Notes under the pieces: generated by a model
Databases searched by the model: none
What the model was told of the DNA's origin: nothing
What the model saw: only the letters and a program-made list of their open reading frames with translations
Translations under genes and position numbers: made by a program
Part shown: piece after piece, positions 25,329 through 55,336 of the stretch
Layout: each line of letters starts with the position of its first letter
Position numbering within the stretch: position 1 is the stretch's first letter
Origin: Spirochaetia bacterium
Lineage (GTDB): Bacteria > Spirochaetota > Spirochaetia > DSM-2461
NCBI GenBank assembly: GCA_963666985.2
Contig: CAXXIA010000001.1
Span: 352,001 to 416,000 of the forward strand
DNA length: 64,000 nt
Reading direction: 5' to 3'

Positions 25329-26590
25329 GCGGACATCTCCTCTGCATAACGAACGCAGCCGTTCATATACTCATCTCGGTAATATTTCAGTGACGATTTA
25401 AGACTGTTGCCCGCCGCCTGCCCGAGTCCGCAGAAGGAGGCGTCTTGCATTACACGTGTATACCGATCAAGCCGATCCAGATCTTCTTCGGTTGCTGTTC
25501 TTTTATTCAGCTTTTCAAGAAGGATGTTGACTTGCCGGAGACCCTCACGGCACGGAGTACATTTCCCGCAGCTTTCATGGAGAAAAAAACGAACTCGATT
25601 TCGAACATTTTCGAGAATATCTCGCGTGTCGTCCAAAACAAAAAGTGCTCCGGAACCGATGGTTATTTCTTTTTCCATACAGCATCGATATTCCAAGAGC
25701 GTATCAAGCATTTCCGAGGGAACCAGAACACCCGAAGCTCCTCCGATATTAACGGCTTTCACCTTCCGGCCGTCCTTCGGTCCCCCGCCGTATTCGTAAA
25801 CGATATCGTGGAAACTTGTTCCGTAGGGAACTTCATACAGACCGCGTCTTTTCACATCGCCCGAGAGCGATATAAGTTTTGTTCCCGGACTGTCCTCGGT
25901 TCCTATGGAGCGGTACCACTCGGCACCCTTCTCGATGATTTTCGGGATGTTCGCAAGGGTTTCCACATTGTTGATCAGCGTCGGTTTTCCCAAGTAACCC
26001 GCTTCGGTTGGGTAGGGAGGCTTCAGCCGAGGCCGCCCCTTTTTCCCTTCGAGAGATGATAAGAGGGCCGTTTCTTCACCGCATAAATAACTGCCGGCTC
26101 CCGAAAAGATTTCAAGGTGAAGAGAAAACTCGCCGCCGAGTATATTTTTACCGAAAAGACCGGCTTTTTCAGCCACCGTTATGGCGTTCTTTATCTTTTC
26201 CTGCGCTTCAGGATATTCATGCCTGACATAAATAAATCCTTTTTCGGCTCCTGCCGCGTAAGCGGCGATAAGAATTCCTTCCAGCAGCTGAAAAGGCAGA
26301 TGCGTCAGTATAAATCGATCCTTAAAGGTTCCGGGCTCTCCTTCATCGGCGTTGCAGATGATGAAACGTTCCTTTTCAGAGGCGGAGGCGACCATACCGA
26401 TTTTTATTCCGGTAGGAAAAGCGGCTCCGCCGCGGCCTCTGAGACCGGCGCGATTCAGTTCCTCCACTATGAATGAGGAATCTTGGGACATCACTTTGCG
26501 GAGTGCCGAGAATCCGCCTCTTGAAACGTAGGAATCCAGATCGATAAATTCATCGAAATCGGTATTGAAAATCCAATTGCTATTCTTCAT
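25325..26590 (-). CDS. hydB: NuoF-like flavin/NADH-binding hydrogenase subunit (short form)
   Basis: Motifs LRGRGGAAFPTG, NADEGEPGTFKDR, CGEETAL, NNVETL, ESCGKCTPCREG, SFCGLG. Confidence 0.9.
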   Translation of the reverse strand: MKNSNWIFNTDFDEFIDLDSYVSRGGFSALRKVMSQDSSFIVEELNRAGLRGRGGAAFPTGIKIGMVASASEKERFIICNADEGEPGTFKDRFILTHLPFQLLEGILIAAYAAGAEKGFIYVRHEYPEAQEKIKNAITVAEKAGLFGKNILGGEFSLHLEIFSGAGSYLCGEETALLSSLEGKKGRPRLKPPYPTEAGYLGKPTLINNVETLANIPKIIEKGAEWYRSIGTEDSPGTKLISLSGDVKRRGLYEVPYGTSFHDIVYEYGGGPKDGRKVKAVNIGGASGVLVPSEMLDTLLEYRCCMEKEITIGSGALFVLDDTRDILENVRNRVRFFLHESCGKCTPCREGLRQVNILLEKLNKRTATEEDLDRLDRYTRVMQDASFCGLGQAAGNSLKSSLKYYRDEYMNGCVRYAEEMSA

Positions 26591-27053
26591 CCGTTTGCTC
26601 CATTTTTTTTATGATTTCTACGGCGCTTTCCGGAGTGAGATTCCCGAAAACCTGATCGTCGATTTTCATTGCCGGCGACATATAGCAGGCACCGAGACAG
26701 TTGACAATCTCAAGAGTAAAAAGACCGTCTTCAGTGGTTTCATTCACATCAATGCCCAGTTTGTCTTTGACGGCTCTATGGATCGCTTCTTTACCTGCGT
26801 TTTCACACGGAGCATTACAGCAAATCCTGATGAGGTGTTTTCCCCGGGGAACTAAAGAAATTTCACTGTAGAATGAAGCGGTTGAATACACCCTGCTTCT
26901 GGAAAGATTTAATTTCTCGGCAATTTCTTTTACGTTCTCCTCGCTGATGTAATTACAAGGATTTTTTTTCTGATACTCCAGTAAAACGGGAAGCAAAGAA
27001 TGACTTTGTTCGGACGTTAATGAAGATGCTTTTTCAACGAGAACCATGCTCAT
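26580..27053 (-). CDS. hydC: NuoE-like [2Fe-2S] hydrogenase subunit
   Basis: Motifs ASFY, IRICCNAPC, NCLGAC..SPAM; first gene of the operon. Confidence 0.9.
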   Translation of the reverse strand: MSMVLVEKASSLTSEQSHSLLPVLLEYQKKNPCNYISEENVKEIAEKLNLSRSRVYSTASFYSEISLVPRGKHLIRICCNAPCENAGKEAIHRAVKDKLGIDVNETTEDGLFTLEIVNCLGACYMSPAMKIDDQVFGNLTPESAVEIIKKMEQTDEE

Positions 27054-33340: not shown

Positions 33341-33691
33341 TTATTCCGGATATTTCCCATAGGCGTTTTTCCATAAATCCGCGATTTCAAAAAACTTCTG
33401 ATATCCGTGCTCTCGGATGAAATCAATCGCTTCTCTGTATTTTCGATATTTATAGCCGTTCTTGGAATGCCATTCCTTAATGGCGGAACAGGATTCGAAT
33501 TGCGGGCAGTCGGCGCAGGTATCAAGTTGTTTATCTCGGAAACAGCAGAGTTTAAGAGCGCATTTAGCCTTGTTGATGTCCCGCTCTCCGGTATCAAAGC
33601 CGATTTTGCATCCTTTACAGACTCCGGAAAGAAAAGGTTTGCAAGTTTTACAATAAGCGCCGCAGCATCCGGCGAAACGGTTTGGATTCAT
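33341..33691 (-). CDS. Cys-rich small protein, DUF3795-like
   Basis: CCGAYCKTC...CKGC...C.LKLCC...CADCPQFESC pattern; ATGA overlap with the upstream helicase gene. Confidence 0.75.
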   Translation of the reverse strand: MNPNRFAGCCGAYCKTCKPFLSGVCKGCKIGFDTGERDINKAKCALKLCCFRDKQLDTCADCPQFESCSAIKEWHSKNGYKYRKYREAIDFIREHGYQKFFEIADLWKNAYGKYPE

Positions 33692-36600
33692 TGATTCCTT
33701 ACTGCAGCATCATCCAAATGATCAAACAAACTGAGTTGATTGTCCGGCTTCGACTTTCGCCGAGCATTATGCTCCTGAAGGTTTATAAGAGCTTCCTGAA
33801 TGTCTTTAAGGAAGGGGCTCTCCATTCGTGATTCATTTCTTCCGAAGATTTTCCGGTTTTGTGCCCAGGAAAGAATAACCCGCTGTTTCGCCCGAGTCAT
33901 GGCCACGTAGAGAAGCCTCTGTTCTTCTTCCACATCGGTTTTTGCATCTCCCGAGAGAGAATAAGGAAGAAGCCCGTCTTCGCATCCGGGAATGTAAACC
34001 ATGTCGAATTCGAGTCCTTTAGACGCATGGATGGTCATAAGAGAAACCGCCTGAACTCGGCTGTCATAGCGGTCAACACCCGATCCCAAACGGGCCCGAA
34101 CCGTAAAAGCCGCCGCGTCATCATCATCTTTCCAATAGACGGCCAGTTCATGGTCCATTCGATGAGCTGCTTGTGTTTCCTCGTCGGGTTCCGAATGGCC
34201 GTCTGTTGCTTCTTTGAAGCCGTCGCCGATTATAGAATCAGGTGTTTTGCGGAACTCCGCGTTGACCTCGCCGGTTTGTTTAGATTGAAGTCGGAAAAAA
34301 AGATCCACCGCCTTTCCTCGTGAAGAAGGAAGATTGCAGTTTAAAATTTTTGAGAGAGGAATGTCTTTCACTTCACCTACCGGTGAACGATCCGATCCCT
34401 TCTTATTGATGAGGATGCGAATGAAATTCAGAAACGAGCGGTAAGGTTCCTTGGCAAAGAGAGATTCGGTTTGGATAATCCGGAAGGGGATTCGATGATC
34501 CGATAAGGCCTTTTCCAAAAGCGGCATCTGCAGGGATGTTCGGCATAGGACGGCAATCTGTGAGAACGCTGTATCTCCGGAGCCCGATTCGGTAACGCCG
34601 CTGTCGAAGGAGAAAAAACCCACGCCTCCGGTGCAAACTTCAATATCACGGGCAATCTGTTCGGCTTCAAAAGCGGCGCTTGGGTTTTTCAGGATATCAA
34701 TTTTCACTCCGCCTTCCCGGCCGAAAAGCGGGAGATTTTCCGCTTTGAGAACTTGGGAAGAGGCTCTAATGACGGTGTCGGGGCAGCGGTAGCTTTGAGC
34801 CAGGGAAAACACGCGGCCTTGAGGAAAGTCCTCTTGGAATCGCCGGATAAACCCCGGAGAAGACCCGCGAAAGCCGTAAATCGATTGATTCGGATCGCCC
34901 ACGGCACAGAGTTCGGCGGTTTTCGAAAGAGTTCTGATAAGTGCGTATTGGATGGGATTGATATCCTGATATTCGTCGATGATGAGATGCCGGATTGATC
35001 TTCCGACGCTTTCGAGAATTGCCGGTCTTTTTTCGAATAGACGGACCGGCAGATAGACTAAGTCGTCAAAGTCGAAGCAGTTCCCGCGTCTGAGGATTTC
35101 CTGATATCGATGAAAACGGCCGAAATCGGTGCTCTGTTCTTCCGGAAACGGCCGGATGCCGCTTTTTACTTGGGAAGCATATTCGGTCAGTTCTTTTCTT
35201 TCTTCTCTCTTGCCGATCCCGGCCGCAGCCAGCAGCGCCGCTTTTTCCTCGTCGTCGATAATCAGAAAATTCGTATCGCGGCCCAAAAGAGGAAGAGAGG
35301 ATTGAAGAATCGTGAGGCCGAAACTGTGGAAGGTGGAAACTTTCACTCCCGATTGTTTCCGAGGGGGCCGGACCGCGGCCGATGACGCCGCCGGTCGAGG
35401 GGCTCCGGCTGTAACGGGGAGTTGTGTCTTACTCGCTGGTATGGGCGGCGCAGCGGCACTGTCGGCGGCGGAAGGTCTTGGCCGGTCGGCCGACTCGGAT
35501 GCATCGGCGGTGACTGAGGGGCCGCCGTAACCTTCAATCGGAACCTTGAGCGCGGCCAGGCGTTCCCTGAGTTCTTCGGCCGCTTTGTTGGCAAAGGTAA
35601 TGGCGACGATGCCTTCGGGATTTGTTCCGGTTGAAAGAAGAGTGCGAATTTTTTCCACCACGGTGTGTGTTTTCCCTGTTCCCGGACCGGCGATGATAAG
35701 ACTGGGACCGCCCGAATAGGAGGCGGCCGCCTCCTGCTCGGGATTCAGACCCGATGGCCAAGTTTTGCGGGCGGCGTTTTCGGTTTTGTCGGCGGAATCC
35801 TTTCCTGATGATTCAGGAGGTCGGGCGGATGCTGGGTTCTCGGCACGATCTGAGGGTTCGGAAGTTGGGGATTGGGGTGTATCTGCGTTTTGGCAGTCGG
35901 TTCCCGAGGCGGCTGCGAGGGTGTCGTCGGCGTTCTGATCGTTTGAATCGTCACATGATTCCAAAGAATCCGTTCCGCCAGGGAGAGCTGAATCAACCGT
36001 TAGGCCGGAAGTCGGGATCGTCTGAAAATCCGAAACCTCGGCTTTCTTTCTTTTTCGCTGATAGGCGGCCAGATCGAAATCAACCCAAGCGAGAGGCTCA
36101 GGGGCCTGACTCGTGTCGGCCTTTAGATCTGCGGCTGTAGGTGAGTCGAAGAGCGACGGCGTTGCTTCTGATCGCGGCGGAGGATCACCTGCGTTCCAAA
36201 TATGAATCGTTCCGTATTCTCCGTCGTAGCCTTCTTCGACGCGGACCTGCCGTCGCCGCATGCGGTCAACGGCTTCGGCCAGTTCTTCGCCTTCCGCTTG
36301 GGCGATCTCATCCTTCTCTCGATAGAGAAGAATGTCGAACTCGGCTCCGAGAGTTTTCAAACAGTTTTCGTATCGGGATTGGACCTTTTTCGATTGAGGA
36401 CCGACACCCTCAAGCTCCGCCAACAATTCCGGAAGGGGTATCAGGGAATAAAACGGATCCCGGTTGGGACGCTCGGCAACATCGGTCCTGTCGGCCAGTT
36501 GGGCCACACGGTTGAGAACTCCAATGGTAACAGGCCGTCCGCAGACCGGGCAGATTCCGCCGTTTTGAAGTGTTTCCAGGGGAGTCCAAACAACCGAGCA

Positions 36601-37464
36601 TTTACGATGTCCGTCGAAGTGATATTTCCCTTCCTGCGGAAAGAACTCAATCGTCCCCCGAAAACCCGCTTCCGCGCCTTTGGAGAGGGCCCGGATGATG
36701 TCGGGATAAGATAGTTCGGTGTCAAAGAGATTCGCCTCCCGGCCGAGTTTCTCCGGTGAGTGGGCATCCGAGTTGCTGATGATGGTGTAGGAGTCCAGGA
36801 AGGAACACATCCAGTTCATGGGAGGATCGGATGAAAGTCCGGTTTCCACCGCCGAGATGTGTTCCGATAAATCCCGGTAGCATTCTTTGATGGTGTCGAA
36901 TCCGGATTTTGATCCCAAGGCTGAAAACCAGGGGGTCCAGATATGGGCGGGAACGAAGAAAATCCGATCATCGGCTTCCAGGCAGAGTTCCAGAAGATCG
37001 CGGGAATCCAGTCCCAGAATGGGACGGCCGTCGGAGCGAATGTTGCCGCCGAGCTGTTCGATTTTTTCCTGAATCCTGAGGATGGCGGGAAAGTCCGGAG
37101 CAAAGATGACGTTATGGACCTTCCGGACCTTTTCTCCGTATTTATAGATGGAGCTGACTTCGGCGGTCAGGATGAAGCGCGTCCGTGCTTGATTCGCCTC
37201 CGGAGAGGAGGCCGTTCCGTTTTTAATCTCCGCGGAAAGATTATCAGGGATTCGATATTCGTTTTTAAGAACAAAGAGTCCCTCTTCCGCTGGAACAAGA
37301 TGTTCTTTAAGTTCCTGCGTCCAACCGGGGTGTGTGAAATCACCGGTTCCGAGGACGGCGATTCCTTTCTTTCGGGCCCAATAATCCAGTTTCTCCGGTG
37401 TGAGCTGCCGGCTGGTTGCCCGGGAGTAGTGGGAGTGAATATGAAAGTCTCCGGCAAAGCGCAT
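33688..37464 (-). CDS. PHP/endonuclease Q-like domain fused to a UvrD/PcrA helicase
   Basis: N-terminal DFHIHSHYSRATS, GTGDFTHP, HIWTPWF, ETGLSSD, SNSDAHS, HRKC..CPVCG. C-terminal AGPGTGKT, TFHSF, IDEYQD, GDPNQSIYGFRG, TIHASKGLEF, RLLYVAMTRA. Confidence 0.9.
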   Translation of the reverse strand: MRFAGDFHIHSHYSRATSRQLTPEKLDYWARKKGIAVLGTGDFTHPGWTQELKEHLVPAEEGLFVLKNEYRIPDNLSAEIKNGTASSPEANQARTRFILTAEVSSIYKYGEKVRKVHNVIFAPDFPAILRIQEKIEQLGGNIRSDGRPILGLDSRDLLELCLEADDRIFFVPAHIWTPWFSALGSKSGFDTIKECYRDLSEHISAVETGLSSDPPMNWMCSFLDSYTIISNSDAHSPEKLGREANLFDTELSYPDIIRALSKGAEAGFRGTIEFFPQEGKYHFDGHRKCSVVWTPLETLQNGGICPVCGRPVTIGVLNRVAQLADRTDVAERPNRDPFYSLIPLPELLAELEGVGPQSKKVQSRYENCLKTLGAEFDILLYREKDEIAQAEGEELAEAVDRMRRRQVRVEEGYDGEYGTIHIWNAGDPPPRSEATPSLFDSPTAADLKADTSQAPEPLAWVDFDLAAYQRKRKKAEVSDFQTIPTSGLTVDSALPGGTDSLESCDDSNDQNADDTLAAASGTDCQNADTPQSPTSEPSDRAENPASARPPESSGKDSADKTENAARKTWPSGLNPEQEAAASYSGGPSLIIAGPGTGKTHTVVEKIRTLLSTGTNPEGIVAITFANKAAEELRERLAALKVPIEGYGGPSVTADASESADRPRPSAADSAAAPPIPASKTQLPVTAGAPRPAASSAAVRPPRKQSGVKVSTFHSFGLTILQSSLPLLGRDTNFLIIDDEEKAALLAAAGIGKREERKELTEYASQVKSGIRPFPEEQSTDFGRFHRYQEILRRGNCFDFDDLVYLPVRLFEKRPAILESVGRSIRHLIIDEYQDINPIQYALIRTLSKTAELCAVGDPNQSIYGFRGSSPGFIRRFQEDFPQGRVFSLAQSYRCPDTVIRASSQVLKAENLPLFGREGGVKIDILKNPSAAFEAEQIARDIEVCTGGVGFFSFDSGVTESGSGDTAFSQIAVLCRTSLQMPLLEKALSDHRIPFRIIQTESLFAKEPYRSFLNFIRILINKKGSDRSPVGEVKDIPLSKILNCNLPSSRGKAVDLFFRLQSKQTGEVNAEFRKTPDSIIGDGFKEATDGHSEPDEETQAAHRMDHELAVYWKDDDDAAAFTVRARLGSGVDRYDSRVQAVSLMTIHASKGLEFDMVYIPGCEDGLLPYSLSGDAKTDVEEEQRLLYVAMTRAKQRVILSWAQNRKIFGRNESRMESPFLKDIQEALINLQEHNARRKSKPDNQLSLFDHLDDAAVRNQ

Positions 37465-37735
37465 GGTTAACTATACCGAATATTTTTCGGCTGGAGAACG
37501 TGAACTTTTTCCGGGATTGTTTTTGTATTTTACCATTGCCGACTTTAATCCTTTTTAGAAGATTTCGGGTACCGGCCCAATGCTTGTATATGATCATTCC
37601 CTAAGGCTTTCTCTCCTTGGTTTTTGAAATAGGTCTTTTTGAGTAATTTCGATAAAAATTTCACGTAATGAAGTTTCCATGCTAAAATTGACAGTCGTCC
37701 GGAGGGATGAAATTGTCTCATGGGGAGGTGCTTTC

Positions 37736-39019
37736 TTGGCTGATTATGCGATGAGATTGTCCGATGACGAGCGATCTGTTTTAGCCGGAGATAAAGGTGA
37801 AACACTGCGCAAGGCACTGGAAACGGTGGTTCGGTATGGAGAGGTTTTCGGTGCCGATTCTCTGGCGGATGTCGAAAAACCGGTTCATCTGGTCACGTCG
37901 TTCGGTGTACCGCTTTTAAAACCGGTCTTTTCCCTAATGGATGAGTTGATTGAAAACGGATTAAAGACCGCCTATCCCTTTACCGCGGATCCGCGTCCCG
38001 ATTTTTCAAACGTGCCCGCAAATCCGCTGGAAAAACTGATCTTCGGTAAAATCATGTACGGGAAACAGTCCGAATATGAGGAACAGCTGAGAAAAACGGG
38101 CTTGGCTTCCGATGATGCGTTTACCTGCACTTGCTACATGGACGAGGTGGGGAATATCCCTTCTGAGGGAGACATCCTGGCCTGGGCGGAGTCCTCGGCC
38201 GTTGTGTATGCCAATTCGGTTCTCGGAGCCAGAACAAATCGGAATTCAGGAGTACTGGAACTCTTAAGCGGCATCACCGGGAAAACGCCCGTCTTCGGAT
38301 TTCTTAGCGATGAAGGCCGCCGCGCCGACTGGCTGATTCAAGTAAAAACAACCAAGACTCCGGAAGCTCAAGTACTCGGATCGGCCATCGGCATGAAGGT
38401 GATGGAGGATGTTCCCTACATCAAGGGGCTGGACGGATTTCTCGGAAAGGAACTGAACTCCGAGGTAAAGGATTATCTGAAAGATATGGGAGCGGCGACG
38501 GCCTCCAATGGGGCGGTGGGTTTGTACCATGTGGAAAAGCTGACTCCGGAAGCGGTGAAAGGCGGAGAATCCTTGCTGAAAAAAGACTATCGGACCTATG
38601 TCGTCGATGATGCCGAGCTGGAGCGTGTAAAGAACGCCTACCCGGTGATGTGGAAGAATAAAGAAGCGAAGCCGAAGGTCTGTTTTATCGGTTGTCCGCA
38701 TCTTTCCTACAATCAGCTGATCCGCTGGACGGATGAAATCGTCGGCGCTTTGAAGAAATCCGGACGGAAAAAAGTCGCTGTCCGAACCGTCATGACCGCC
38801 GCGCCGGCCGTTATTGAACGGTTTAAAACCAATAAAGACTTTTATGCACGACTGACGGCGACGGGAGTCCGACTAAGTCCTGTTTGCCCGCTGATGTATA
38901 TGAACAACCCGCTTTGCGCGAAAAAGCCGGTAATCACCAATTCCAACAAATTGAGAACCTACACCACCAGCCGGTACTATACCGATTCGGAGATTCTCAA
39001 ATGCCTGGCAAGGAGATGA
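37736..39019 (+). CDS. Aconitase X catalytic (large) subunit, DUF521
   Basis: Motifs AWAESSAVVYANSVLGARTNR, GAATASNGAVGLYHV..TPEA, IGCPH, ITNSNK. Start moved to TTG 37736 after GGAGG. Confidence 0.9.
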   Translation: MADYAMRLSDDERSVLAGDKGETLRKALETVVRYGEVFGADSLADVEKPVHLVTSFGVPLLKPVFSLMDELIENGLKTAYPFTADPRPDFSNVPANPLEKLIFGKIMYGKQSEYEEQLRKTGLASDDAFTCTCYMDEVGNIPSEGDILAWAESSAVVYANSVLGARTNRNSGVLELLSGITGKTPVFGFLSDEGRRADWLIQVKTTKTPEAQVLGSAIGMKVMEDVPYIKGLDGFLGKELNSEVKDYLKDMGAATASNGAVGLYHVEKLTPEAVKGGESLLKKDYRTYVVDDAELERVKNAYPVMWKNKEAKPKVCFIGCPHLSYNQLIRWTDEIVGALKKSGRKKVAVRTVMTAAPAVIERFKTNKDFYARLTATGVRLSPVCPLMYMNNPLCAKKPVITNSNKLRTYTTSRYYTDSEILKCLARR

Positions 39020-39021
39020 AG

Positions 39022-39465
39022 ATGGAGTTTCAAGGACGGGTCATATTAGGCGGGGAATGTACCCTGGAAGCGGTGGTGACAAAACAGGGATTCAATACAC
39101 TGGCTTCCTGCCAAAAATCGGCCATGGCCAAAAAAGATCGGATTCTCTGCTCGGATCAGAACAATCCTGATTTGTTTAACAAAAACATCACCGGAAAAGC
39201 ACTCTGTCTTCCGAAAACCATCGGCTCCACAACCGGAGGAATGGTTCTGCAGACCGTCGCGGATATGGGGATTGCCCCCGCGGCCATGCTGTTCTCCGAA
39301 AGCATCGATTCTCTGGCGGCCAGCGGAGTGATTCTGGCCGATATCTGGAACAAGCATACCATCATTACCATCGACAGACTGGGTGCGGATTTCCTCGATG
39401 CCGTGCGGAGCGGAATGAATCTGGAAATTAAAAAAGACGGGACCGTCATATTAAAGGAGAACTGA
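39022..39465 (+). CDS. Aconitase X swivel (small) subunit, DUF126
   Basis: FQGRVI..G...EAVVT, ITGKALCLP..IGSTTGG, GIAPAAMLF. AGGAG RBS; alternative ATG at 39016 overlaps the upstream stop. Confidence 0.88.
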   Translation: MEFQGRVILGGECTLEAVVTKQGFNTLASCQKSAMAKKDRILCSDQNNPDLFNKNITGKALCLPKTIGSTTGGMVLQTVADMGIAPAAMLFSESIDSLAASGVILADIWNKHTIITIDRLGADFLDAVRSGMNLEIKKDGTVILKEN

Positions 39466-39469
39466 AAAC

Positions 39470-41737
39470 ATGAATTATCAGCAGCGCGTTAAAGAACTTG
39501 TAGACGGATTAGGAACCTGGTATGAGGATGAGTCGGCTCTGGCCTCCGGTAAAATGACGGCGAATCTCCATCCCTATACCTCCATGTTTTCTCCCCTGCA
39601 GATTAACCGTCTGAAAGTGAAGAACCGATTGGTGATGGGGCCGATGGGAAACATCAGCATGGCCGACGAGACGGGGCGTCCGGCGAAGAAGATGATTGAA
39701 TATTTCGTGCGGCGGGCCGAAGGCGGAGTGGGGCTTATTACCTCCGGTTTGGTCCCCATCAGTCACGGAGTCGATCCCACCGTTACGGAACTCGGAGACC
39801 GTTCTTATTTTCCCCGGATCGATAAAAGCCGGTCTGTGTTCGCCGGATGGCGCGACATCGCCGAGCGGTGTCACGGATACGGTACGGCATTCTTCATCCA
39901 GCTTACCCCGGGACTCGGTCGCGTGGGCTCTCCCGAATGCATGATTAATAAAATGAAATTCCCGATTTCGGCCTCCTGGAATCCGAACTTTTACATTCCC
40001 GGTCTGCCGTGCAAGCCGATTCCGGGAAGGGATGCCTGGAAAATCATCAAGAAAGCGGGACAGGCGGCCGCCGATGCCAAGTCCCTGAATATCGACGGTG
40101 TGTATCTGCACGGGCATGAAGGTTATTTCCTGGAACAGATGACCAATCCGGCCTTCAACCGCCGCAAGATGGGTAAGTTCGCCGACTGGAAGGCCTTCGG
40201 TATTGAAATCGTGAAAGAGCTTCGCAGGCGCACAGGTCCCGGCTACCCGATTATGTACCGCATCGATCTGTCTCTGGTCTTAAATGAAACATACAAAGAG
40301 CGGATGAGTACGGTTAAGTCGCTGAAAAAGTTTAAAAATGAGCGAACGGTTGAAATGACTCTGGACTACATGAAAGATCTTGTGGCCGCCGGAGTGGATC
40401 TTTTCGATGTTGATCTCGGATGCTATGACAATTGGTGGCTTCCTCATCCTCCCGGTCCCATGCCTCCCGGATGTTTTCTGGAGGTTTCCCGGATTGTCAA
40501 AGAGTATTTCAGAGAACATAAAATCATCTCCAACGCCGGTGTGGAAGTTCCCATTGTGGCCGTGGGCAAACTCGGTTATCCGGATACTTCCGAGAAGGCG
40601 CTCCGAGACGGCAAATGCGACATGATTATGCTCGGGCGTCCGCTTCTGGCCGATCCTGATTGGCCGAAGAAAGCCTATTCGGGGAAAGTGGATGAGATTG
40701 CCACATGCATCGGCGATCAGGAAGGCTGCATCAATGAGTTCGTTGAAGGCGGCCATCCCCAATGCGCCATCAATCCGGTTACCGGATTTGAAGATGTGTA
40801 TAACGGCAGCGAATTGCAGAGAGCTCCTGTCGGCCGGAAGGTGGCCGTCATTGGGGCCGGGCCTGCCGGTGTTATGGCCGCTTTAACCGCCGCCCGCCGG
40901 GGGCATGATGTAACCCTTTTTGAAAAATCGGGGAGAATCGGCGGTATGCTCAATCCCGGATCGCGCCCGAAAATCAAGTTTGATATCGCCAACTACATCG
41001 CCTATCTGAAACGGCAAATTGAACTGGTATCGGCGGAATACTCGTTGAAGCTGGTTTTGAATTCCGCCCCCTCTCCTGCGGAATTGAAGTCTCAAGGATG
41101 GGATGTCATTATCGTCTCAACCGGAACCGTTCAGAAGAAACCGCCTGTAAACGGCATTGATTCGGAGAATGTGGTTTCGGCCATCGACTTATTGAATAAT
41201 CCGGAACTGGCGGATCAGGCGAAAAAGATCGTGGTTGTCGGCGGCGGTGTTGTGGGCTGTGAAACGGCTTACTTCCTGCGCCACGAGATGAAAAAGGATG
41301 TTCAGATTGTGGAAATGCTGCCTGAAATCATGAAGGGAGTCTGCACCGCCAACAGGGGTTATTTGATTCACTATCTGGAAGAACTGAATGTTCCTCTTCA
41401 TAACTGTACCAGCCTGAAAGAAGTAAAAGCCGGCAAGGCGGTTCTTCTGAAGAACGTTTCGAAAACCGTTCCCGATCCGTATGTCACCTGGACTCCGCTT
41501 CTTCCTGAGAATATCGAGAATCCTTTCGCTAAAAAGATAAAACCGGAGACTCAGGAAATCGAAGTGGAGGCCGATTTGGTGGTTTTGGCCGTCGGTTCGG
41601 TACCGGATGATTCATTCTTCTATGAATGCCAGAGCATTAATGCGGCATCCGAGCTGTACAACATCGGAGATTGCTATCATGCCGGACGGGTGTTCGAAGC
41701 GGTGAAATCCGCCTACCAGGCGGGAATATCCTGCTGA
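39470..41737 (+). CDS. 2-enoate reductase-like flavoenzyme (OYE barrel plus FeS and FAD/NAD domains)
   Basis: KNRLVMGPM, RAEGGVGLI, LHGHEGY.LEQ, GRPLLADP, and two Rossmann motifs (VIGAGPAG, VVGGGVVGCE). Confidence 0.88.
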   Translation: MNYQQRVKELVDGLGTWYEDESALASGKMTANLHPYTSMFSPLQINRLKVKNRLVMGPMGNISMADETGRPAKKMIEYFVRRAEGGVGLITSGLVPISHGVDPTVTELGDRSYFPRIDKSRSVFAGWRDIAERCHGYGTAFFIQLTPGLGRVGSPECMINKMKFPISASWNPNFYIPGLPCKPIPGRDAWKIIKKAGQAAADAKSLNIDGVYLHGHEGYFLEQMTNPAFNRRKMGKFADWKAFGIEIVKELRRRTGPGYPIMYRIDLSLVLNETYKERMSTVKSLKKFKNERTVEMTLDYMKDLVAAGVDLFDVDLGCYDNWWLPHPPGPMPPGCFLEVSRIVKEYFREHKIISNAGVEVPIVAVGKLGYPDTSEKALRDGKCDMIMLGRPLLADPDWPKKAYSGKVDEIATCIGDQEGCINEFVEGGHPQCAINPVTGFEDVYNGSELQRAPVGRKVAVIGAGPAGVMAALTAARRGHDVTLFEKSGRIGGMLNPGSRPKIKFDIANYIAYLKRQIELVSAEYSLKLVLNSAPSPAELKSQGWDVIIVSTGTVQKKPPVNGIDSENVVSAIDLLNNPELADQAKKIVVVGGGVVGCETAYFLRHEMKKDVQIVEMLPEIMKGVCTANRGYLIHYLEELNVPLHNCTSLKEVKAGKAVLLKNVSKTVPDPYVTWTPLLPENIENPFAKKIKPETQEIEVEADLVVLAVGSVPDDSFFYECQSINAASELYNIGDCYHAGRVFEAVKSAYQAGISC

Positions 41738-41878
41738 TTCGCCGATGAGCCGATGCGCCGACGTGGGCCGGCGGCCGTTTTACTTAAAGCTGTCGTCGGC
41801 CTTTCCGGAACTCCCGATTCGGCGGCCTCTGGTGTTTCACCGAACCAGAGTTCATACTGAAACGGCGGGAGAGTGACG

Positions 41879-42730
41879 ATGAAAACGAACGGAACGGTTG
41901 TTTTTCAGAGTGATTTCGGCCTGGTGGACGGAGCGGTTTCCGCTATGTACGGAGTAGCCAATGCCGTTTCTCCGAAGCTTCAGCTTTACAATCTGACGCA
42001 TGAGATTCCTCAATTTAATATTTGGGAAGCTTCATACCGTCTTATTCAAACTTTGGAATACTGGGCGCCGGGAACCGTCTTTGTATCAGTTGTTGATCCC
42101 GGAGTGGGAACGGACAGGAAGAGCGTTGCCGTCTTAACCAATTCCGGACACTATATTGTTACACCGGACAACGGAACACTCACCCACGTTGTCCGGAAAA
42201 TCGGCATAGCGCGCTGTCATGAGATTGAGGAAGCCGTGAATCGTCTGGAGGATTCACGGAATTCTTATACGTTCCACGGCCGGGATGTTTACGCCTATAC
42301 AGGGGCCCGTTTGGCCGCCGGGATTATCGATTTGGATGGAGTCGGACGGGTTTTATCTCCGGAGGATGCGGTTCTTCATCCCTCCACGCAGGCCGGGATG
42401 GAGAGTGGCGTTATCAAGGCATCGGTTGATATTCTGGATTCCCGTTACGGAAGTCTTTGGACAAACTGTTCCGAAGAATTGTTTTCAGAGCTGGAAGTGA
42501 AATACGGAGAATATGTACAAGTTTCCATCTCACACCACGGACGGACAGTTTACGGCAACGATTTGAAGTTCGGAAAATCCTTCAGCGATGTAAACATCGG
42601 CGCTTCGATCGTTTACATTAACTCGCTTATGAATGTCGGCGTGGCCATCAATCAGGGGAATTTCGCCCGGGCTCACGATGTGGGTGCCGGAATCAACTGG
42701 CATATCAATTTTCGCAAAATCATTAAATAA
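41879..42730 (+). CDS. DUF62 SAM hydrolase (SAM hydroxide adenosyltransferase family), copy 1
   Basis: Motifs FQSDFG, VVDPGVGTDR, VTPDNGTL, TFHGRDVYA. Confidence 0.9.
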   Translation: MKTNGTVVFQSDFGLVDGAVSAMYGVANAVSPKLQLYNLTHEIPQFNIWEASYRLIQTLEYWAPGTVFVSVVDPGVGTDRKSVAVLTNSGHYIVTPDNGTLTHVVRKIGIARCHEIEEAVNRLEDSRNSYTFHGRDVYAYTGARLAAGIIDLDGVGRVLSPEDAVLHPSTQAGMESGVIKASVDILDSRYGSLWTNCSEELFSELEVKYGEYVQVSISHHGRTVYGNDLKFGKSFSDVNIGASIVYINSLMNVGVAINQGNFARAHDVGAGINWHINFRKIIK

Positions 42731-42775
42731 CTCTGTTCAATTACCGGCGGAACCCTTTTTGCTTCGTGGGGTCAT

Positions 42776-42801
42776 TGAAAAAAGCCGGCAAAAACCGGCT
42801 T
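42776..42801 (-). terminator. Intrinsic terminator of the small secreted-protein gene
   Basis: AAGCCGG-N6-CCGGCTT stem followed by a T-run on the minus strand. Confidence 0.55.
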
Positions 42802-42826
42802 CCATTAAAAAAATCTCAATTGATAA

Positions 42827-43246
42827 CTATTGCCGAGGACGGTTATCAGCTCCTTCATTGATTCTTTCACAGGAAACAACCCGGATCCGGCCGGAGACAT
42901 GCGTGCTGTCGTTTCTATTTCCTTTTCCCTCAAGACGAATCTGGTTTTCGCGATTATTCTGATCTTGATATGTTACGGTAACGGCATAATTATTTTTATT
43001 CGTCAGTTCCGTTTCTCCCGCTCTGTTTGTTTTTACCTTTACGCCGGAGATTTCATAATTATCCCGCTGCTGACCGGAAATTTGATTATTCTGCTGGTTT
43101 TGTTGATTTTGCTGTGTTTGATTATTCTGCTGCGTCGTCTGTGTCTGCGGCTGATTAGTGCCTGATTTCCCCTGGTCGCCGTTCTGTGCAAAGAGAACCG
43201 TTGAGAGTAACAGTAATGTCGCCGTAAGAGTGATGATTTTCTTCAT
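42827..43246 (-). CDS. Small secreted Gln/Asn-rich hypothetical protein
   Basis: Signal peptide MKKIITLTATLLLLSTVLFA; AGGAG RBS; low-complexity tract QQNNQTQQNQQNQQNNQ. Confidence 0.75.
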   Translation of the reverse strand: MKKIITLTATLLLLSTVLFAQNGDQGKSGTNQPQTQTTQQNNQTQQNQQNQQNNQISGQQRDNYEISGVKVKTNRAGETELTNKNNYAVTVTYQDQNNRENQIRLEGKGNRNDSTHVSGRIRVVSCERINEGADNRPRQ

Positions 43247-43453
43247 TTTCTTCTCCTGTATCAATTTAACTATTTCTAGAATTGATTCTTAATTGTTTTA
43301 CTAAATAGGTATCGCATGAAAGACATATTAACTATGAACGAATCATAGAATTATTATGAATTGATCGGGGTAGGATATCGGCTGAAGGATCAAATGGTGA
43401 ATTACGGCATTCCGGGGCGCCTTTCGGGTATAATTAAGGGAAAGGGTGAATCT

Positions 43454-44320
43454 ATGATACAAAGCAATCGAATCGTTGTTTTTCAAAGCGACTTCGGCCT
43501 TTTGGAAGGAACCGCTGCGCAGATGTACGGTGTGGCCTTGGGCATCGATCCCGATCTAAAGCTGGTGGATCTTTCTCATTACATCGACAGATTCAACACA
43601 TGGGACGCTTCTTACTCTTTGTTTCAGACCTGTCCGGTTTTTCCCGAAGGTACGGTTTTTGTTTCGGTAATCGATCCGGGGGTGGGGACCGGCCGGAAAA
43701 GCGTGGTTGCCCTTACCTCCGCCGGCCATTTCATTGTTACGCCGGATAACGGCACGCTGACTCATCTGAAGAAACACGTGGGTATAACGGATTTGAGGGA
43801 AATCGACGAATCGATGAACAGACGGCCCGGATCGGAAAAATCCCATGTTTTTCACGGAAGGGATGTCTATGCCTATACCGGCGCACGGCTGGCGGCCGGG
43901 ATTATCGATTTTGAAGGGGTTGGTGCCAAGCTCCCGCTGGACGGAATCGTTTGCCATCCGACGCCCGATCCGGAGATTGCTCATAACAAAGTAACCGGAA
44001 GAGTGGATATCACCGACCCGCATTTCGGAATGATTTGGACCAATATCCCCATAGAGGTTTTTGAACGGATGGATATTCCATTCGGAACAATCGTCAATAT
44101 TGTGGTGAAACATCGCGGTGAAGTCCGTTATGATAAACAAGTGCTTTATGGAAAGTCTTTCGGCAGCGTTCCCGAGGGCGAGGATATTCTTTATAACAAC
44201 GAGATAGGCTATTTCGCACTGGGAACCAATTTGCGAAGTTTTATTGAATTGTACGGCATCGCATCCGGACCGGACTGGAGCATCAGTCTGGAAAAGATAG
44301 AATCGAACGAGACTCGGTGA
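43454..44320 (+). CDS. DUF62 SAM hydrolase, copy 2
   Basis: Motifs FQSDFG, VIDPGVGTGR, VTPDNGTL, VFHGRDVYA. Start moved to ATG 43454. Confidence 0.9.
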   Translation: MIQSNRIVVFQSDFGLLEGTAAQMYGVALGIDPDLKLVDLSHYIDRFNTWDASYSLFQTCPVFPEGTVFVSVIDPGVGTGRKSVVALTSAGHFIVTPDNGTLTHLKKHVGITDLREIDESMNRRPGSEKSHVFHGRDVYAYTGARLAAGIIDFEGVGAKLPLDGIVCHPTPDPEIAHNKVTGRVDITDPHFGMIWTNIPIEVFERMDIPFGTIVNIVVKHRGEVRYDKQVLYGKSFGSVPEGEDILYNNEIGYFALGTNLRSFIELYGIASGPDWSISLEKIESNETR

Positions 44321-44371
44321 AAATGTCACAATTTCGCCAAAGAGTCTCCGCTGCTTGATGAGGAGGCAGAA

Positions 44372-44914
44372 ATGTTCAAATTCGGTACAAGGAAAATCGT
44401 CGCGACCGGCATCGGGGCCGCCCTGTTCATGGTTCTGTTCATGTTCGTTAAAATTCCCTCCTGGGTTCCCGAAACACAGTTCCAGACGGCCTATGCCCTC
44501 GGTTCCCTGATGGCCGTCCTCTTCGGGCCCATTGCCGGTTTTCTGATTCAGTTTATCGGCCATGCCTTAAGCGACGCGATTCAGTACGGATCTCCGTGGT
44601 GGAGCTGGGTTATCGCCAGCGGTGTTTCCGGGTTCGTCTTCGGTTTTGCCTATAAGCGGACCGGTGTTGATTCCGGTGATTTTAAAATGAAGGGAATCAT
44701 TGCGTTCAACGTTATTCAAATTATCGGCAATTTGATTGCCTGGCTTGTTGTGGCGCCCGTTTTGGACATCCTGATTTACGCCGAACCGACAAATCTTGTG
44801 TTCACTCAAGGAGCCGTGGCGGCCTTAATGAATATGATCAGCTGCGGCGTTCTCGGGACCTTGCTGATGTTCGCCTGGTCCAAGACCATTCCCAAGAAGG
44901 GCAGCCTGGAATAG
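44372..44914 (+). CDS. ECF transporter substrate-specific (S) component, UPF0397-like
   Basis: IVATGIGAALF, FGPIAG, IGHALSD..YGSPWWSWVIASG, APVLDILIYAEP...FTQG. Confidence 0.88.
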   Translation: MFKFGTRKIVATGIGAALFMVLFMFVKIPSWVPETQFQTAYALGSLMAVLFGPIAGFLIQFIGHALSDAIQYGSPWWSWVIASGVSGFVFGFAYKRTGVDSGDFKMKGIIAFNVIQIIGNLIAWLVVAPVLDILIYAEPTNLVFTQGAVAALMNMISCGVLGTLLMFAWSKTIPKKGSLE

Positions 44915-44922
44915 TTCTCCGT

Positions 44923-46665
44923 ATGGTAAAAGATCCGGTTATCCAATTCTCCGGTTTCTCTTTTACCTATCTCGCTCAGAAGTATCCGACTCTCAAGGAC
45001 CTTAATCTCACGATTTATCGCGGGGAGAAGGTCCTCATTGTCGGTCCGAGCGGGAGCGGTAAAAGCACTCTGGGCAACTGCATCAACGGACTTATTCCCT
45101 TCTCCTATGAGGGCGAAATTCTCGGAGAGGTGAACGTCGGCGGAACGGTTGTAAAGGATTCCAGCGTTTTCGAGCTTTCCAAAACCGTCGGAACGGTAAT
45201 GCAGGATTCCGATGCCCAGTTTGTCGCCCTTTCGGTAGCCGAAGACATTGCCTTCGCACTGGAAAACGATCGGGTTCCGCAAGAGGGAATGAAGGTTCGC
45301 GTGCTGGATGCGGCGAAGATTGTCGGTATGGATGATTACTTGAAGCAGTCGCCTCAGGAACTCTCCGGCGGACAGAAACAGCGGACCTCTCTGGCGGGCA
45401 TCCTGGTGGATGACGTGGATGTTCTGCTTTTCGACGAACCGTTGGCCAATCTGGATCCGCAAACCGGGAAATACGCCATCGAACTTATCGACGAAATCCA
45501 TCGGGGGCGCCATTGGGATGCCGGTGACCATGAGGGCGATACGATTCCACGGACCACGCTTATCATCGAACACCGAATTGAAGATGTCCTTCACAGGGAA
45601 GTGGACCGAATTATTTTGATGGACGATGGGCGCATCGTGGCCGATCTGCCGCCTCATGAAATGATCGCATCGGGGCTGCTGACGGATCACGGACTCCGGG
45701 AACCGCTTTATATCGCCGCTCTCCGTCATGCGGGGGTGGATATAACCGCCAAGCTGCGGCCGGCATACCTTTCAACCGTCGACTTTGATTCCTGCCGCCC
45801 GCGGATGCAGAGTTGGTATGAATCCGTGGAAGATCCGCCGCCGCCGAAAATCGGAGAGGAGGTTATCGCCATTCGGCATTTGGATTTCGAATATTACCAA
45901 GATCGGCCTGTGTTGTCGGATATCAATCTGAACATTGCCGCCGGAGAGATGATTTCCATCGTCGGAACCAACGGAGCGGGAAAGTCCACACTGGCCAAGA
46001 TTATCTGCCGCTTTGAGGATAGTCCGAACGGCACGGTTTTCTTCAGGGGAGAGGATGCCTCCGGACTGAGTATTACCGAGAGAGCATCCTTTGTGGGATT
46101 CATTCTGCAGAATCCCAATCAGATGATCACCAAAACTCAAATCTACGATGAAATCGCTATGGGACTCCGGTTGCGAAAAGTTCCGGATACGGAGATTGAA
46201 GAACGGGTGGACCGGGTAATGGCCGTCTGCGGTTTGGAGCGGTTTAAAAAGTGGCCCGTTTCTGCTTTAAGCTACGGGCAGAAGAAACGGGTAACCATCG
46301 CGTCGATTCTGGTGCTGAATCCGAAGGTTATCATTCTGGATGAGCCGACGGCGGGGCAGGATTACCGTCACTACACGGAAATCATGCGTTTTCTGACGAA
46401 GATAAACGAAATGGGTGTAACGGTGATTATGATTACCCACGATATGCATCTGATGCTGGAATACACCCGGCGATCGGTGGTTATCGACGGCGGCCGGATT
46501 ATAGCCGATACAGATTCCAGCACGGTTCTTACCAGTCCCGATTTGGTGAAAAGAGCCAGCCTGAAGGAAACCTCTCTTTTTCATCTGGCCGAAAGTGTCG
46601 GAATCGAGAGTCCCAAATCCCTGGTGGACCGGTTCATTCTTTTCGAAACGGAGATGAATCGGTGA
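44923..46665 (+). CDS. ECF transporter duplicated ATPase
   Basis: Two ABC domains: GPSGSGKS / LSGGQKQR / DEPLANLDP and GTNGAGKS / LSYGQKKR / DEPTAGQD. Confidence 0.93.
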   Translation: MVKDPVIQFSGFSFTYLAQKYPTLKDLNLTIYRGEKVLIVGPSGSGKSTLGNCINGLIPFSYEGEILGEVNVGGTVVKDSSVFELSKTVGTVMQDSDAQFVALSVAEDIAFALENDRVPQEGMKVRVLDAAKIVGMDDYLKQSPQELSGGQKQRTSLAGILVDDVDVLLFDEPLANLDPQTGKYAIELIDEIHRGRHWDAGDHEGDTIPRTTLIIEHRIEDVLHREVDRIILMDDGRIVADLPPHEMIASGLLTDHGLREPLYIAALRHAGVDITAKLRPAYLSTVDFDSCRPRMQSWYESVEDPPPPKIGEEVIAIRHLDFEYYQDRPVLSDINLNIAAGEMISIVGTNGAGKSTLAKIICRFEDSPNGTVFFRGEDASGLSITERASFVGFILQNPNQMITKTQIYDEIAMGLRLRKVPDTEIEERVDRVMAVCGLERFKKWPVSALSYGQKKRVTIASILVLNPKVIILDEPTAGQDYRHYTEIMRFLTKINEMGVTVIMITHDMHLMLEYTRRSVVIDGGRIIADTDSSTVLTSPDLVKRASLKETSLFHLAESVGIESPKSLVDRFILFETEMNR

Positions 46666-47489
46666 AGCTTTTTAACTACAGCTGCGAAGATACCGTAATT
46701 CACCGTTTATCCGGACTCACAAAACTGCTCTGCTTCATCATGCTTACCGGAGTGGTGATGTATGCCTACGACATCAGAATCTTTTTATTCATTCTCGTTT
46801 TTTCTTTTACCGTTCTTCGAATTGCCCGTATCCCTTTGAAAAACCTGAAACTCATATTCATCTATGTGGGAATTTTTTTGGTGATCAATTTCTTTCTGTC
46901 TTATCTGTTCGATCCGAAATTCGGTCCGGAAACCTACGGTTCATCAACGCTGATATTCCATATTGCCGGAAAATACGATGTAACCCGGGAACAGCTTTTT
47001 TATCAGCTTTCCAAGTTTTTTAAATACGGTTCGGTGATTCCCTTAGGGGTTATTTTCCTTTTTACAACCGATCCCAGCGAATTCGCTTCCAGTCTGAATG
47101 CCGTCTTGATTCCCTATAAGGTTGCCTATGCCGTGGCGCTTACCCTGCGCCATTTCCCCGATGTGCAGAGTGAATACACCACCATCTCCAAGGCTCAGCA
47201 GGCACGAGGACTGGATATTTCCCGGAAAACTTCTTTCCTGCACAGGTTCAAAAATGCGGTTGCTACGATGGTTCCTCTTATTTTTTCATCGCTGGAACGT
47301 ATCGATGTGATTACGAACGCCATGCATCTAAGGGGTTTCTCCAAATACCGCAAGCGGACTTGGTACAGCTTCCGGCCGATGAAAACCGGTGATTTTATCG
47401 CAATCGGGATTTGTCTTGTCATTATTGGCGGGGCCGTGTTTATCGCCGTTTACGTGAACAAAGGGCGATTTTACAATCCGTTTGGATAA
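46662..47489 (+). CDS. ecfT: ECF transporter transmembrane (T) component
   Basis: TTDPSEFA.SL, AQQARG and AMHLRGF coupling motifs. Confidence 0.9.
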   Translation: MKLFNYSCEDTVIHRLSGLTKLLCFIMLTGVVMYAYDIRIFLFILVFSFTVLRIARIPLKNLKLIFIYVGIFLVINFFLSYLFDPKFGPETYGSSTLIFHIAGKYDVTREQLFYQLSKFFKYGSVIPLGVIFLFTTDPSEFASSLNAVLIPYKVAYAVALTLRHFPDVQSEYTTISKAQQARGLDISRKTSFLHRFKNAVATMVPLIFSSLERIDVITNAMHLRGFSKYRKRTWYSFRPMKTGDFIAIGICLVIIGGAVFIAVYVNKGRFYNPFG

Positions 47490-53613: not shown

Positions 53614-55336
53614 GGGGCTGTCTCATTAGTTTGAGACAGCCCCTTTTAAAATTTGGTTGACCTCCGAAGACGGGAGGTTCCCTCCCATCCCCTTATCGTT
53701 TCTGTAGCTTCCTCATGTTATGAGCCATACTCAACAGTCCCCATTCAGTACTGACCATCTTCAATCCCCTGGTTCGGAATCTCCGAAATCCCATATTCGT
53801 CTTGATATCTCCGAATACAGATTCGACTTCAATCGGCCTGAGAGAGCGCATTCTCAGTCCTTCCTCTGAAGTCAGCAACTTGCGCACTTCAGACTTATGC
53901 CGTTCCAGGTTTGGACGAACCGTCAGGATGCGCTCTTTGCCTCCGTATTTGCAGCACCGGATTCGGAGAGAACACCTTTGGCATCCAGGGCCTGTATACC
54001 TTTTTTCAGTGGTCGGAAATCCTGAACCTGTTTTCGAGATTCTGGTCTCCTCGTGTTTGAATCGGCGACCCTTGGGGCACCGGTATGTATCATCAGAGGC
54101 ACGATAGTCCCAGTTCTCTTTCATATGAATCTGCTTCTTGAACTTCCGTTTCCGCTCCCTGTGGAAGTAGCTGAACTTGATGTACTTCTCGACACCATGA
54201 TCCTCACACCACTGGTAGTTCTCTTCACTACCATATCCTGAATCAGCAATGATTCTTTTCGGATAGCGTTTCAGATTCTTTTTCAGTTTCTCCATATGTA
54301 GCGGCAATGTCAGGGAGTCACCGGGACTCTGGTGGATGCTATATCCGAGGATGAACTGGTTCTCAGTACCCATTTGGATGTTGTACCCGGGCTTGAGCTG
54401 ACCATTTTTCATATAGTCTTCTTTCATCCGCATGAAAGTCGCATCATAGTCTGTTTTCGAGTAACTATTTCGGTCGCCGAGGATTCTCTTCTGCTGCTCA
54501 TACTTTTTGGCACGAGGGAGATAGTCCTTGCTAGCGGTATTCAATCTCCGTTGAATCTCCTTCTTTTCTCGCTCCTCCCGATCCTTGCGCAGCTCTTCAT
54601 TGAGCTTGGATACCGCATCTTCGAGAATCTCCGACATCGGCCTGCCTTGAGGATCCACATGGGGAAGGTCATGGTCGCCGTACTTCTCATCCTCTTCTTC
54701 ATTGATGCGGTCGATGTATTCGAAAAGCTCATCCATATTGCCGGCCAGGCGCTTCTGGAACTTGTCTGTCGCCCGGCCCCATACCCATGTGTATTTGTTA
54801 GCTGCTGATTCGATTTTTGTGCCGTCGAGAAAGTAGTTCTCCATCTGGACATGTCCGCTCTCGATGAGGCTGTTGGCCATTGAGGCAAAGATTTTCTCGA
54901 TGCTCTTCTTCAATGGACCGTTACGAAATCTGTTTATCGTGTGGAAATCAGGACGGTTATTACCACTGATCCACATGAAGCATATCTGCTCACGAAGAGC
55001 GTCTGCGATTTGACGACAGGAATACAGCTGTTTCGAGTAGGCCAACACCAGAACCTTCAGCATCATCACCGGGTGGTAGCTGCTGGCACCGCCTCCCGGA
55101 TAGGCGTTGAAGAGCTCACTGGTATCCATCGTGTCGATGAAGTTGTTGATTGTGCGGGATATATGGTTTGCGGGAAGCAGTTCATCGAGACTTGGAGGCA
55201 GGAGCATCTGTTGGCTGATTTCGTAATCTTTGAATGTAGCCTTCTTTTTAGTGTCCATGAAGAATTCTACCACCCTTGAATTCAGAAGGGAATTCTTCCA
55301 GACATGAAAAAGGGCCGCCTCTTATGAGACAGCCCC
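53614..55336 (-). mobile_element. Insertion sequence, IS1182 family
   Basis: Terminal inverted repeats GGGGCTGTCTCATTAG (53614) and CTTATGAGACAGCCCC (ends 55336), 15 of 16 matching, enclosing one transposase. No target duplication is evident. Confidence 0.85.
53693..55258 (-). CDS. IS1182-family DDE transposase
   Basis: YHPVMMLKVL, PDFHTINRFR, LDGTKIES.ANKYT, SKTDYDATFMRMKED, ADSGYGSE, EVESVFG...GFRRF. Confidence 0.93.
   Translation of the reverse strand: MDTKKKATFKDYEISQQMLLPPSLDELLPANHISRTINNFIDTMDTSELFNAYPGGGASSYHPVMMLKVLVLAYSKQLYSCRQIADALREQICFMWISGNNRPDFHTINRFRNGPLKKSIEKIFASMANSLIESGHVQMENYFLDGTKIESAANKYTWVWGRATDKFQKRLAGNMDELFEYIDRINEEEDEKYGDHDLPHVDPQGRPMSEILEDAVSKLNEELRKDREEREKKEIQRRLNTASKDYLPRAKKYEQQKRILGDRNSYSKTDYDATFMRMKEDYMKNGQLKPGYNIQMGTENQFILGYSIHQSPGDSLTLPLHMEKLKKNLKRYPKRIIADSGYGSEENYQWCEDHGVEKYIKFSYFHRERKRKFKKQIHMKENWDYRASDDTYRCPKGRRFKHEETRISKTGSGFPTTEKRYTGPGCQRCSLRIRCCKYGGKERILTVRPNLERHKSEVRKLLTSEEGLRMRSLRPIEVESVFGDIKTNMGFRRFRTRGLKMVSTEWGLLSMAHNMRKLQKR

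Follow-up and report, generated by a model that had tools for sequence, protein, structure and literature searches.

A split aconitase X recurrently paired with enoate-reductase-type flavoenzymes: a candidate coenzyme A-independent dehydration-reduction pathway

We analysed three genes at positions 37736-41737 of a 64,000-nucleotide stretch of a Spirochaetia bacterium genome (the whole stretch is called the window below), which encode the large and small subunits of an aconitase X (AcnX) and a flavoenzyme of the 2-enoate reductase type. Reductases of this type recur beside such AcnX proteins in many species, and the two very probably form a functionally coupled module. Judging by its sequence, the window AcnX belongs to an unstudied aconitase-X subclass. 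The module combines known enzyme kinds in an undescribed pathway; the literature covered, which was mostly open-access and included the available text of PMC5144071 and PMC11574389, holds no description of an AcnX paired with an enoate reductase. It is likely that the two enzymes act in order, dehydration first and reduction second. On balance we favour a coenzyme A (CoA)-independent dehydration of a nonpolar 3-hydroxy acid followed by reduction with NADH, and we tentatively propose a 3-hydroxy fatty acid as the substrate.

All three open reading frames (ORFs) are intact and lie on the same strand, and the GC content of the operon, overall and at third codon positions, is similar to that of the neighbouring genes. 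The features of the region, including ribosome-binding sites (RBS), are:

37736..39019, + strand: AcnX large subunit, 427 aa from TTG (PF04412, E 7.7e-87)
39016 or 39022..39465, + strand: AcnX small (swivel) subunit (PF01989, E 1.1e-12; match to 7cnr_B)
39470..41737, + strand: HEGY-type 2-enoate-reductase flavoenzyme with flavin mononucleotide (FMN), 4Fe-4S and flavin adenine dinucleotide (FAD), partner clade A, 755 aa (PF00724 and PF07992)
37723..37728, + strand: RBS GGGAGG, 7 nt upstream of TTG 37736, read from the sequence
39010..39015, + strand: RBS AAGGAG of the small subunit, within the 3' end of the large-subunit gene
39454..39459, + strand: RBS AAGGAG of the reductase, read from the sequence
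37660..37688, + strand: promoter-like site TTCACG-17-TG-TAAAAT, weak, at chance level
41738..41872, + strand: spacer of 135 nt with predicted structure, perhaps the end of the operon (fold z -2.39; 6 of 200 shuffles fold as well)

TTG 37736 is most likely the start of the large subunit, because of the GGGAGG upstream and because homologs start with MANYKMSL or MADYKMTL; large-subunit residue numbers below are counted from ATG 37751, not from this TTG. The large-subunit stop codon (TGA, 39017-39019) overlaps an in-frame ATG of the small subunit at 39016, and a second in-frame ATG at 39022 has better spacing from the AAGGAG. The small-subunit gene stops at 39463-39465 and is followed by four nucleotides (AAAC) and the reductase ATG at 39470. 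An earlier note on this DNA had described three tightly coupled genes with a stop/start overlap and a 4-nt gap, a separate AAGGAG RBS for the reductase, and a lack of the known AcnX partner genes. The first two points are borne out by these coordinates, and a Pfam scan that covered 35 proteins of the window gave no match to the proline racemase, UbiD or UbiX families. The promoter scan called 7 promoter-like sites in the region against 6.6 expected by chance, and no U-tailed terminator was called in the 41738-41872 spacer.

The module is common, with at least 587 matching GTDB stretches. Among the best 80 loci, which were fetched, 47 carry a HEGY reductase, mostly on the same strand and within ~50 nt of AcnX. 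The remaining 33 genomes encode a reductase of a second lineage, clade B, elsewhere in 29 cases and one of clade A in one case, which brings the top homolog genomes with a partner reductase to 77 of 80 (47 in the locus and 30 elsewhere). We also sampled 250 genomes evenly from the class around G042, a deliberately chosen centre. Core AcnX was found in 18 of these, and a clade A or B reductase occurs in 17 of the 18 versus 6 of the 232 AcnX-negative genomes, a comparison that leaves one genome unscored, considers only four candidates in each genome and includes related, non-independent genomes. In the sole AcnX-positive exception, AcnX is cut by the contig end. In one family the module occurs in 21 of 401 genomes; here the reductase is adjacent in 18 of 20 loci, two of these from a third reductase lineage.

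Clades A and B hardly ever occur together and share 25–33% identity. A single-clade origin of the two was rejected (approximately unbiased test, p=0.007; the tree has long branches), and the AcnX tree requires 5–8 swaps between A and B partners, at least 5. Since the same type of enzyme was recruited repeatedly, the product of AcnX, or its substrate, would be an enoate. In an alternative reading, the module works in reverse, with oxidation of a saturated acid by the flavoenzyme and hydration of the enoate by AcnX, or in parallel, with each enzyme detoxifying the same 2-enoic acid on its own. Oxidation of a saturated acid with NAD+ is uphill, which counts against the reverse direction. Furthermore, neither a 3-hydroxyacid dehydrogenase nor a lyase or CoA ligase for a downstream step is conserved, and an Fe-ADH-like gene (its label read, unscanned) lies near the module in only 3 loci. 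We consider such use decidedly unlikely, although AcnX reactions are reversible according to the available text of PMC10040528 and BaiCD-type flavoenzymes run in both directions according to that of PMC11574389.

Among 923 neighbours, neither a third gene nor a transporter or any other enzyme family is conserved near the module, which would fit a membrane-permeable substrate. TetR regulators adjoin some loci. Close AcnX homologs include Smithellaceae and Clostridia, and the hosts comprise many gut and sludge anaerobes; cultured hosts of the module include Caloramator quimbayensis, Mediterraneibacter agrestimuris, Collinsella massiliensis and Clostridium sp. Cult3. A homolog was found in only 1 of 40 relatives searched, hence the distribution is patchy; the window's genome itself has one AcnX and about 10 other iron-sulfur (FeS) flavoenzyme paralogs at 24–27% identity.

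The window AcnX displays the traits of type II, with PF04412 large and PF01989 small subunits in tandem and the AcnX fold. The large subunit as modelled by AlphaFold (pLDDT 93.7) matched Thermococcus kodakarensis AcnX (TkAcnX, 7cnr_A) with Z 44.9, rmsd 2.4 over 378 residues and 31% identity, and Agrobacterium tumefaciens AcnX (AtAcnX) with Z 33.9 and 25% identity. ESM Atlas matches carried AcnX/DUF521 names only. According to the available text of PMC8184944 and PMC10040528, from which we took the residue roles, only two reactions of AcnX are known, and no function is assigned to the bacterial subclasses IIc-IIf. The predicted 4Fe-4S ligands of the large subunit are C126, C315 and C379, at the type-IIb cluster sites. 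All 55 large subunits compared carry these three Cys, E147, S148, K400 and Y404; the third Cys, the Lys and the Tyr were placed by motif spacing and the AtAcnX alignment, as the HMMER alignment to TkAcnX ended earlier. The small subunit keeps the general-base Ser (S69-T70-T71 aligned with S62-T63-V64 of T. kodakarensis), this Ser-Thr being nearly invariant among aligned homologs, and the catalytic and cluster motifs were found in 178–194 of 194 loci. Thus, the residues kept are those that act on the C1-C2-C3(OH) backbone common to known AcnX substrates, while the substrate-defining ones are not kept.

Sequence alignment shows the latter in detail. At the hydroxyproline-binding sites, the amine-binding Asp203 is replaced by an invariant Val48, Ile206 by an invariant Phe51 and Trp35 by Leu27, and Thr72 is the sole one of the four to be conserved. 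The mevalonate-phosphate loop Gly48-Val49-Ser50 is replaced by Thr49-Ser50-Phe51, Asn53 by Leu or a variable residue and Asn79 by Asp80. Both Ser50, a phosphate contact, and Ile206, a ring contact, map to the invariant Phe51.

These replacements bear on whether the AcnX dehydrates cis-3-hydroxy-L-proline or mevalonate-5-phosphate, as the known enzymes do, and has an unrelated reductase as its neighbour. The fold and cluster ligands are the same as in TkAcnX, and the window's genome has HMG-CoA reductase and one UbiD. However, the substrate-specific residues of both known enzymes are missing, and the UbiD is located elsewhere and is closest to VdcC-type models. The genome also contains a compact classical mevalonate cluster (G000:C1:1165720-1172545) with HMG-CoA synthase, IDI-2, mevalonate kinase and a diphosphomevalonate decarboxylase above cut-off; its putative phosphomevalonate kinase had no NCBIfam match at 1e-8, and DXR was not found in the genome. 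Among 40 host genomes, UbiD occurs in 4 and proline racemase above cut-off in 5, and the window's genome has no racemase. On these grounds, both the modified mevalonate route and the hydroxyproline route were rejected, and a known activity is extremely improbable.

The subclass has a signature of its own in the large subunit, consisting of HLVTSFG, D80 and an inserted helix at 92-103 with invariant F98 and Y103; Leu381 and Tyr383 are also invariant. The inserted helix has the highest mean hydrophobicity (0.32) of 10 helices measured and is not strongly amphipathic. This helix, Leu381/Tyr383 and the replaced residues may line the pocket, in which case the tail of the substrate would be nonpolar, an assignment that we hold to be slightly better than even. 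A different view is that the module serves as an electron sink for a small polar beta-hydroxy acid such as malate, citrate, 3-hydroxybutyrate, 3-hydroxy-3-methylglutarate, mevalonate or carnitine. It would agree with the retention of the module in ~1 Mb genomes, with the lack of a class I fumarase match in 4 of the 5 hosts searched, and with a BCCT transporter four genes off in one relative (L166). Yet by alignment no subclass-specific basic or acidic residue falls in the distal pocket, Val, Thr and Phe replace polar residues there, and no conserved charged-solute transporter was seen, which makes a small polar acid unlikely.

In the class-wide sample, AcnX identities form separate bands of 57–64%, 43–44% and 29–34%, which marks the core AcnX group as a distinct cluster. 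A neighbourhood analysis of DUF521 found this cluster recurrently adjoining enoate-type reductases, as the earlier note had anticipated. The pairing is not a peculiarity of one genome, occurring in 47 of the 80 GTDB loci, in many species and with two reductase lineages, and with 23–31% identity and without the substrate-specific residues the AcnX is not, by sequence, among the known hydroxyproline or mevalonate-phosphate enzymes. Overall, the note's reading of a distinct AcnX recurrently paired with enoate-type reductases is supported, and from it we infer the reaction steps given below. The note named no class of substrate; to its reading we add indications of a nonpolar substrate, perhaps a fatty acid.

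Other AcnX proteins were seen alongside the core group. A sister group at 43–44% identity (L163, L164, L165) has no adjacent reductase, and its small subunits lack the GSTT catalytic-Ser motif in the two that were aligned and are possibly non-catalytic. Distant AcnX proteins at 29–34% identity (L167, 7040-10000, and L168-L171) lie in other contexts and may represent further, unassigned AcnX pathways: two large subunits flank one small subunit ahead of a TRAP-like transporter, and AcnX has LeuC/LeuD/LeuB-like and RraA-like neighbours (gene labels taken from the translations). Divergent AcnX proteins with a more polar inserted helix occur with the third reductase lineage and TetR in L240 and L243, and with a Gate-domain membrane protein in L239; they probably act on different substrates. 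In L166 (genome G006, same genus), a 51%-identical AcnX has no reductase in its locus; upstream of it are a PAF-acetylhydrolase-like lipase and an acyltransferase-domain gene, and an MMPL gene adjoins it.

The reductase has the layout of an OYE barrel, an FeS cluster and an FAD/NAD domain. It contains the HGHEGY motif, the Glu-Gly-Tyr of which aligns with FadH (1PS9), and we take it to be of the HEGY type, a label adopted from the earlier note. The second Cys of the FeS motif is an Asp, as in 87 of the 120 closest homologs, and this Asp is presumably a ligand. Against the NCBIfam models the enzyme scores 292 bits for BilR (cut-off 750) and 265 bits for BaiCD (cut-off 825), reaching neither cut-off, and partner reductases of other loci score 287–362 bits against these models. 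It is 34–38% identical to generic HEGY reductases; its closest named homologs come from Spirochaetales, and the JGI label on relatives is '2-enoate reductase'. Most FeS flavoenzymes of gut bacteria are unassigned, according to the available text of PMC11574389.

We propose the following mechanism. The small-subunit Ser would abstract the C2 proton of a free 3-hydroxy acid, and the [4Fe-4S] cluster on C126/C315/C379, with E147 and K400, would remove the C3-OH to give a 2-enoic acid. NADH would then reduce the C=C bond via FAD, FeS and FMN to the saturated acid, with no CoA activation. Bacteria without fatty-acid synthesis (FAS) would gain usable acyl chains, and for fatty-acid makers such as the window's host the benefit would be an NADH sink or detoxification.

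A clue to the substrate comes from the FAS genes of the hosts. FabZ was found in 163 of the 250 sampled genomes and FabZ/FabA was not found in the other 87, which suggests widespread fatty-acid auxotrophy among uncultured gut Clostridia. Only 1 of 12 genomes with AcnX and clade B and 2 of 17 with clade B have FabZ (naive p 4e-6, size-restricted p 0.003; the genome sizes used cover 162 of 163 values). Among further hosts, 7 of 49 with a clade-B partner and 6 of 12 with a clade-A partner have FabZ. FabF occurs in 10 of 61 hosts of the B type, in 8 of 15 of the A type and in none of 4 B-only genomes. That FabF was not found in 51 of 61 B-type hosts points to lipid salvage. In five hosts of 2.9–3.6 Mb, FabD was found in none, ACP in all five and DegV/FakB in four. 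As FabZ, FabF and FabD are mostly missing, most hosts look like fatty-acid scavengers. We rejected the idea that AcnX stands in for FabZ within type II FAS (FASII), since FabF and FabD are lacking too. In 9 partly redundant loci the neighbours of module genes include secreted lipase-like proteins, and faeces contain bacterial 3-hydroxy acyl lipids, according to the available text of PMC13712783.

Based on these observations, one possible role of the module, which we advance with reserve, is widespread CoA-independent lipid recycling. Fatty-acid-auxotrophic gut Clostridia would convert foreign 3-hydroxy fatty acids, from lipid A, glycine and ornithine lipids or N-acyl amides, to saturated acids for their membranes, and immuno-active lipids and NADH would be consumed. 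Several points weigh against this role. The window's genome has a complete FASII cluster, and clade-A hosts often keep FAS (FabZ in 6 of 6 in the class sample, FabF in the 8 of 15 given above). A planned test within one family, which covered 15 of the 20 AcnX-positive genomes and 10 of the 380 negative ones in the order listed, gave a weak contrast, with FabF missing in 7 of the 15 and in 1 of the 10 (one-sided p=0.065), and the size-matched contrast of 7 of 8 versus 1 of 7 is post hoc. Most hosts are incomplete metagenome-assembled genomes, small and related, and loss of FAS may track lineage or genome size. The module is present in only ~13% of FabZ-less genomes. Smithellaceae, which have close AcnX homologs, could beta-oxidise 3-hydroxy fatty acids. 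Finally, the lipase-like neighbours are sporadic, with a Pfam hydrolase match in 1 of 5 tested.

The same two steps might instead act on aromatic acids, converting 3-aryl-3-hydroxypropionates via cinnamates to arylpropionates, or AcnX might interconvert cis and trans isomers by hydration and dehydration and thereby supply a cinnamate-type reductase. Cinnamates are substrates of clostridial enoate reductases, both partner clades fall among generic HEGY reductases, the pocket as placed by alignment is rich in aromatic as well as nonpolar residues, and many hosts are herbivore-gut Clostridia by their record titles. Aromatic substrates nevertheless leave the enrichment in FAS-less genomes unexplained, and no esterase or aromatic-acid transporter is conserved near the module; we regard them as rather unlikely. 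If the substrate is a 3-hydroxy fatty acid, the module would reveal lipid cross-feeding from Gram-negative producers to uncultured fatty-acid auxotrophs, may explain a growth requirement of the latter, and would represent a CoA-free deoxygenation biocatalyst.

Around the operon, the window contains the following features:

41873-47489: pair of DUF62 (SAM hydroxide adenosyltransferase) paralogs that share 46% identity, with an ECF transporter after them
33688-37464, - strand: 1258-aa protein, apparently a fusion of an N-terminal nuclease/PHP-type domain and a UvrD-like helicase with long low-complexity linkers, read from the sequence
23601-27053, - strand: three-gene FeFe hydrogenase with NuoE/NuoF-like subunits (Pfam scan)
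53693-55273, - strand: DDE transposase with DUF772 (Pfam scan)

The ECF transporter comprises the S component PRK13661, the ATPase and T. Together with the DUF62 genes it likely serves salvage of S-adenosylmethionine (SAM) or methionine precursors. We treated these genes as unrelated to the operon, because they are not among the recurring neighbours.

Finally, we compared the module with known systems. The AcnX IIb mevalonate-5-phosphate dehydratase (T. kodakarensis 7CNR/7CNS; A. pernix PMDh) has the same two-subunit layout and fold and shares with the window AcnX the three cluster Cys, the Glu, Lys and Tyr and the small-subunit Ser-Thr. However, identity is 30–31%, the phosphate loop and Asn79 are replaced (Thr/Ser/Phe and Asp80), the window AcnX has the inserted hydrophobic helix, and its partner is a reductase, not UbiD/UbiX. 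The hydroxyproline-type AcnX of A. tumefaciens shares the fold (Z 33.9) and the beta-elimination residues, and its pathway also has a reductase as the next step. Here identity is 23–25%, the score for NF051439 is 150.6 bits and does not reach the cut-off of 700, equivalents of Asp203, Trp35 and Cys510 are missing, and an OYE/FeS flavoenzyme takes the place of the imine reductase as partner. The layout of OYE, FeS and FAD/NAD domains is common to clostridial 2-enoate reductase (EC 1.3.1.31), FadH (1PS9), BaiCD and BilR, from which the window reductase differs by the Asp in the cluster motif, extra inserts and its dedicated AcnX partner. The same net dehydration followed by enoyl reduction is carried out by FabZ with FabI/FabK in FASII and by the acyl-CoA dehydratase and reductase branches of Stickland metabolism. 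These enzymes have unrelated folds and use ACP or CoA thioesters, whereas AcnX keeps the residues that bind a free carboxylate.

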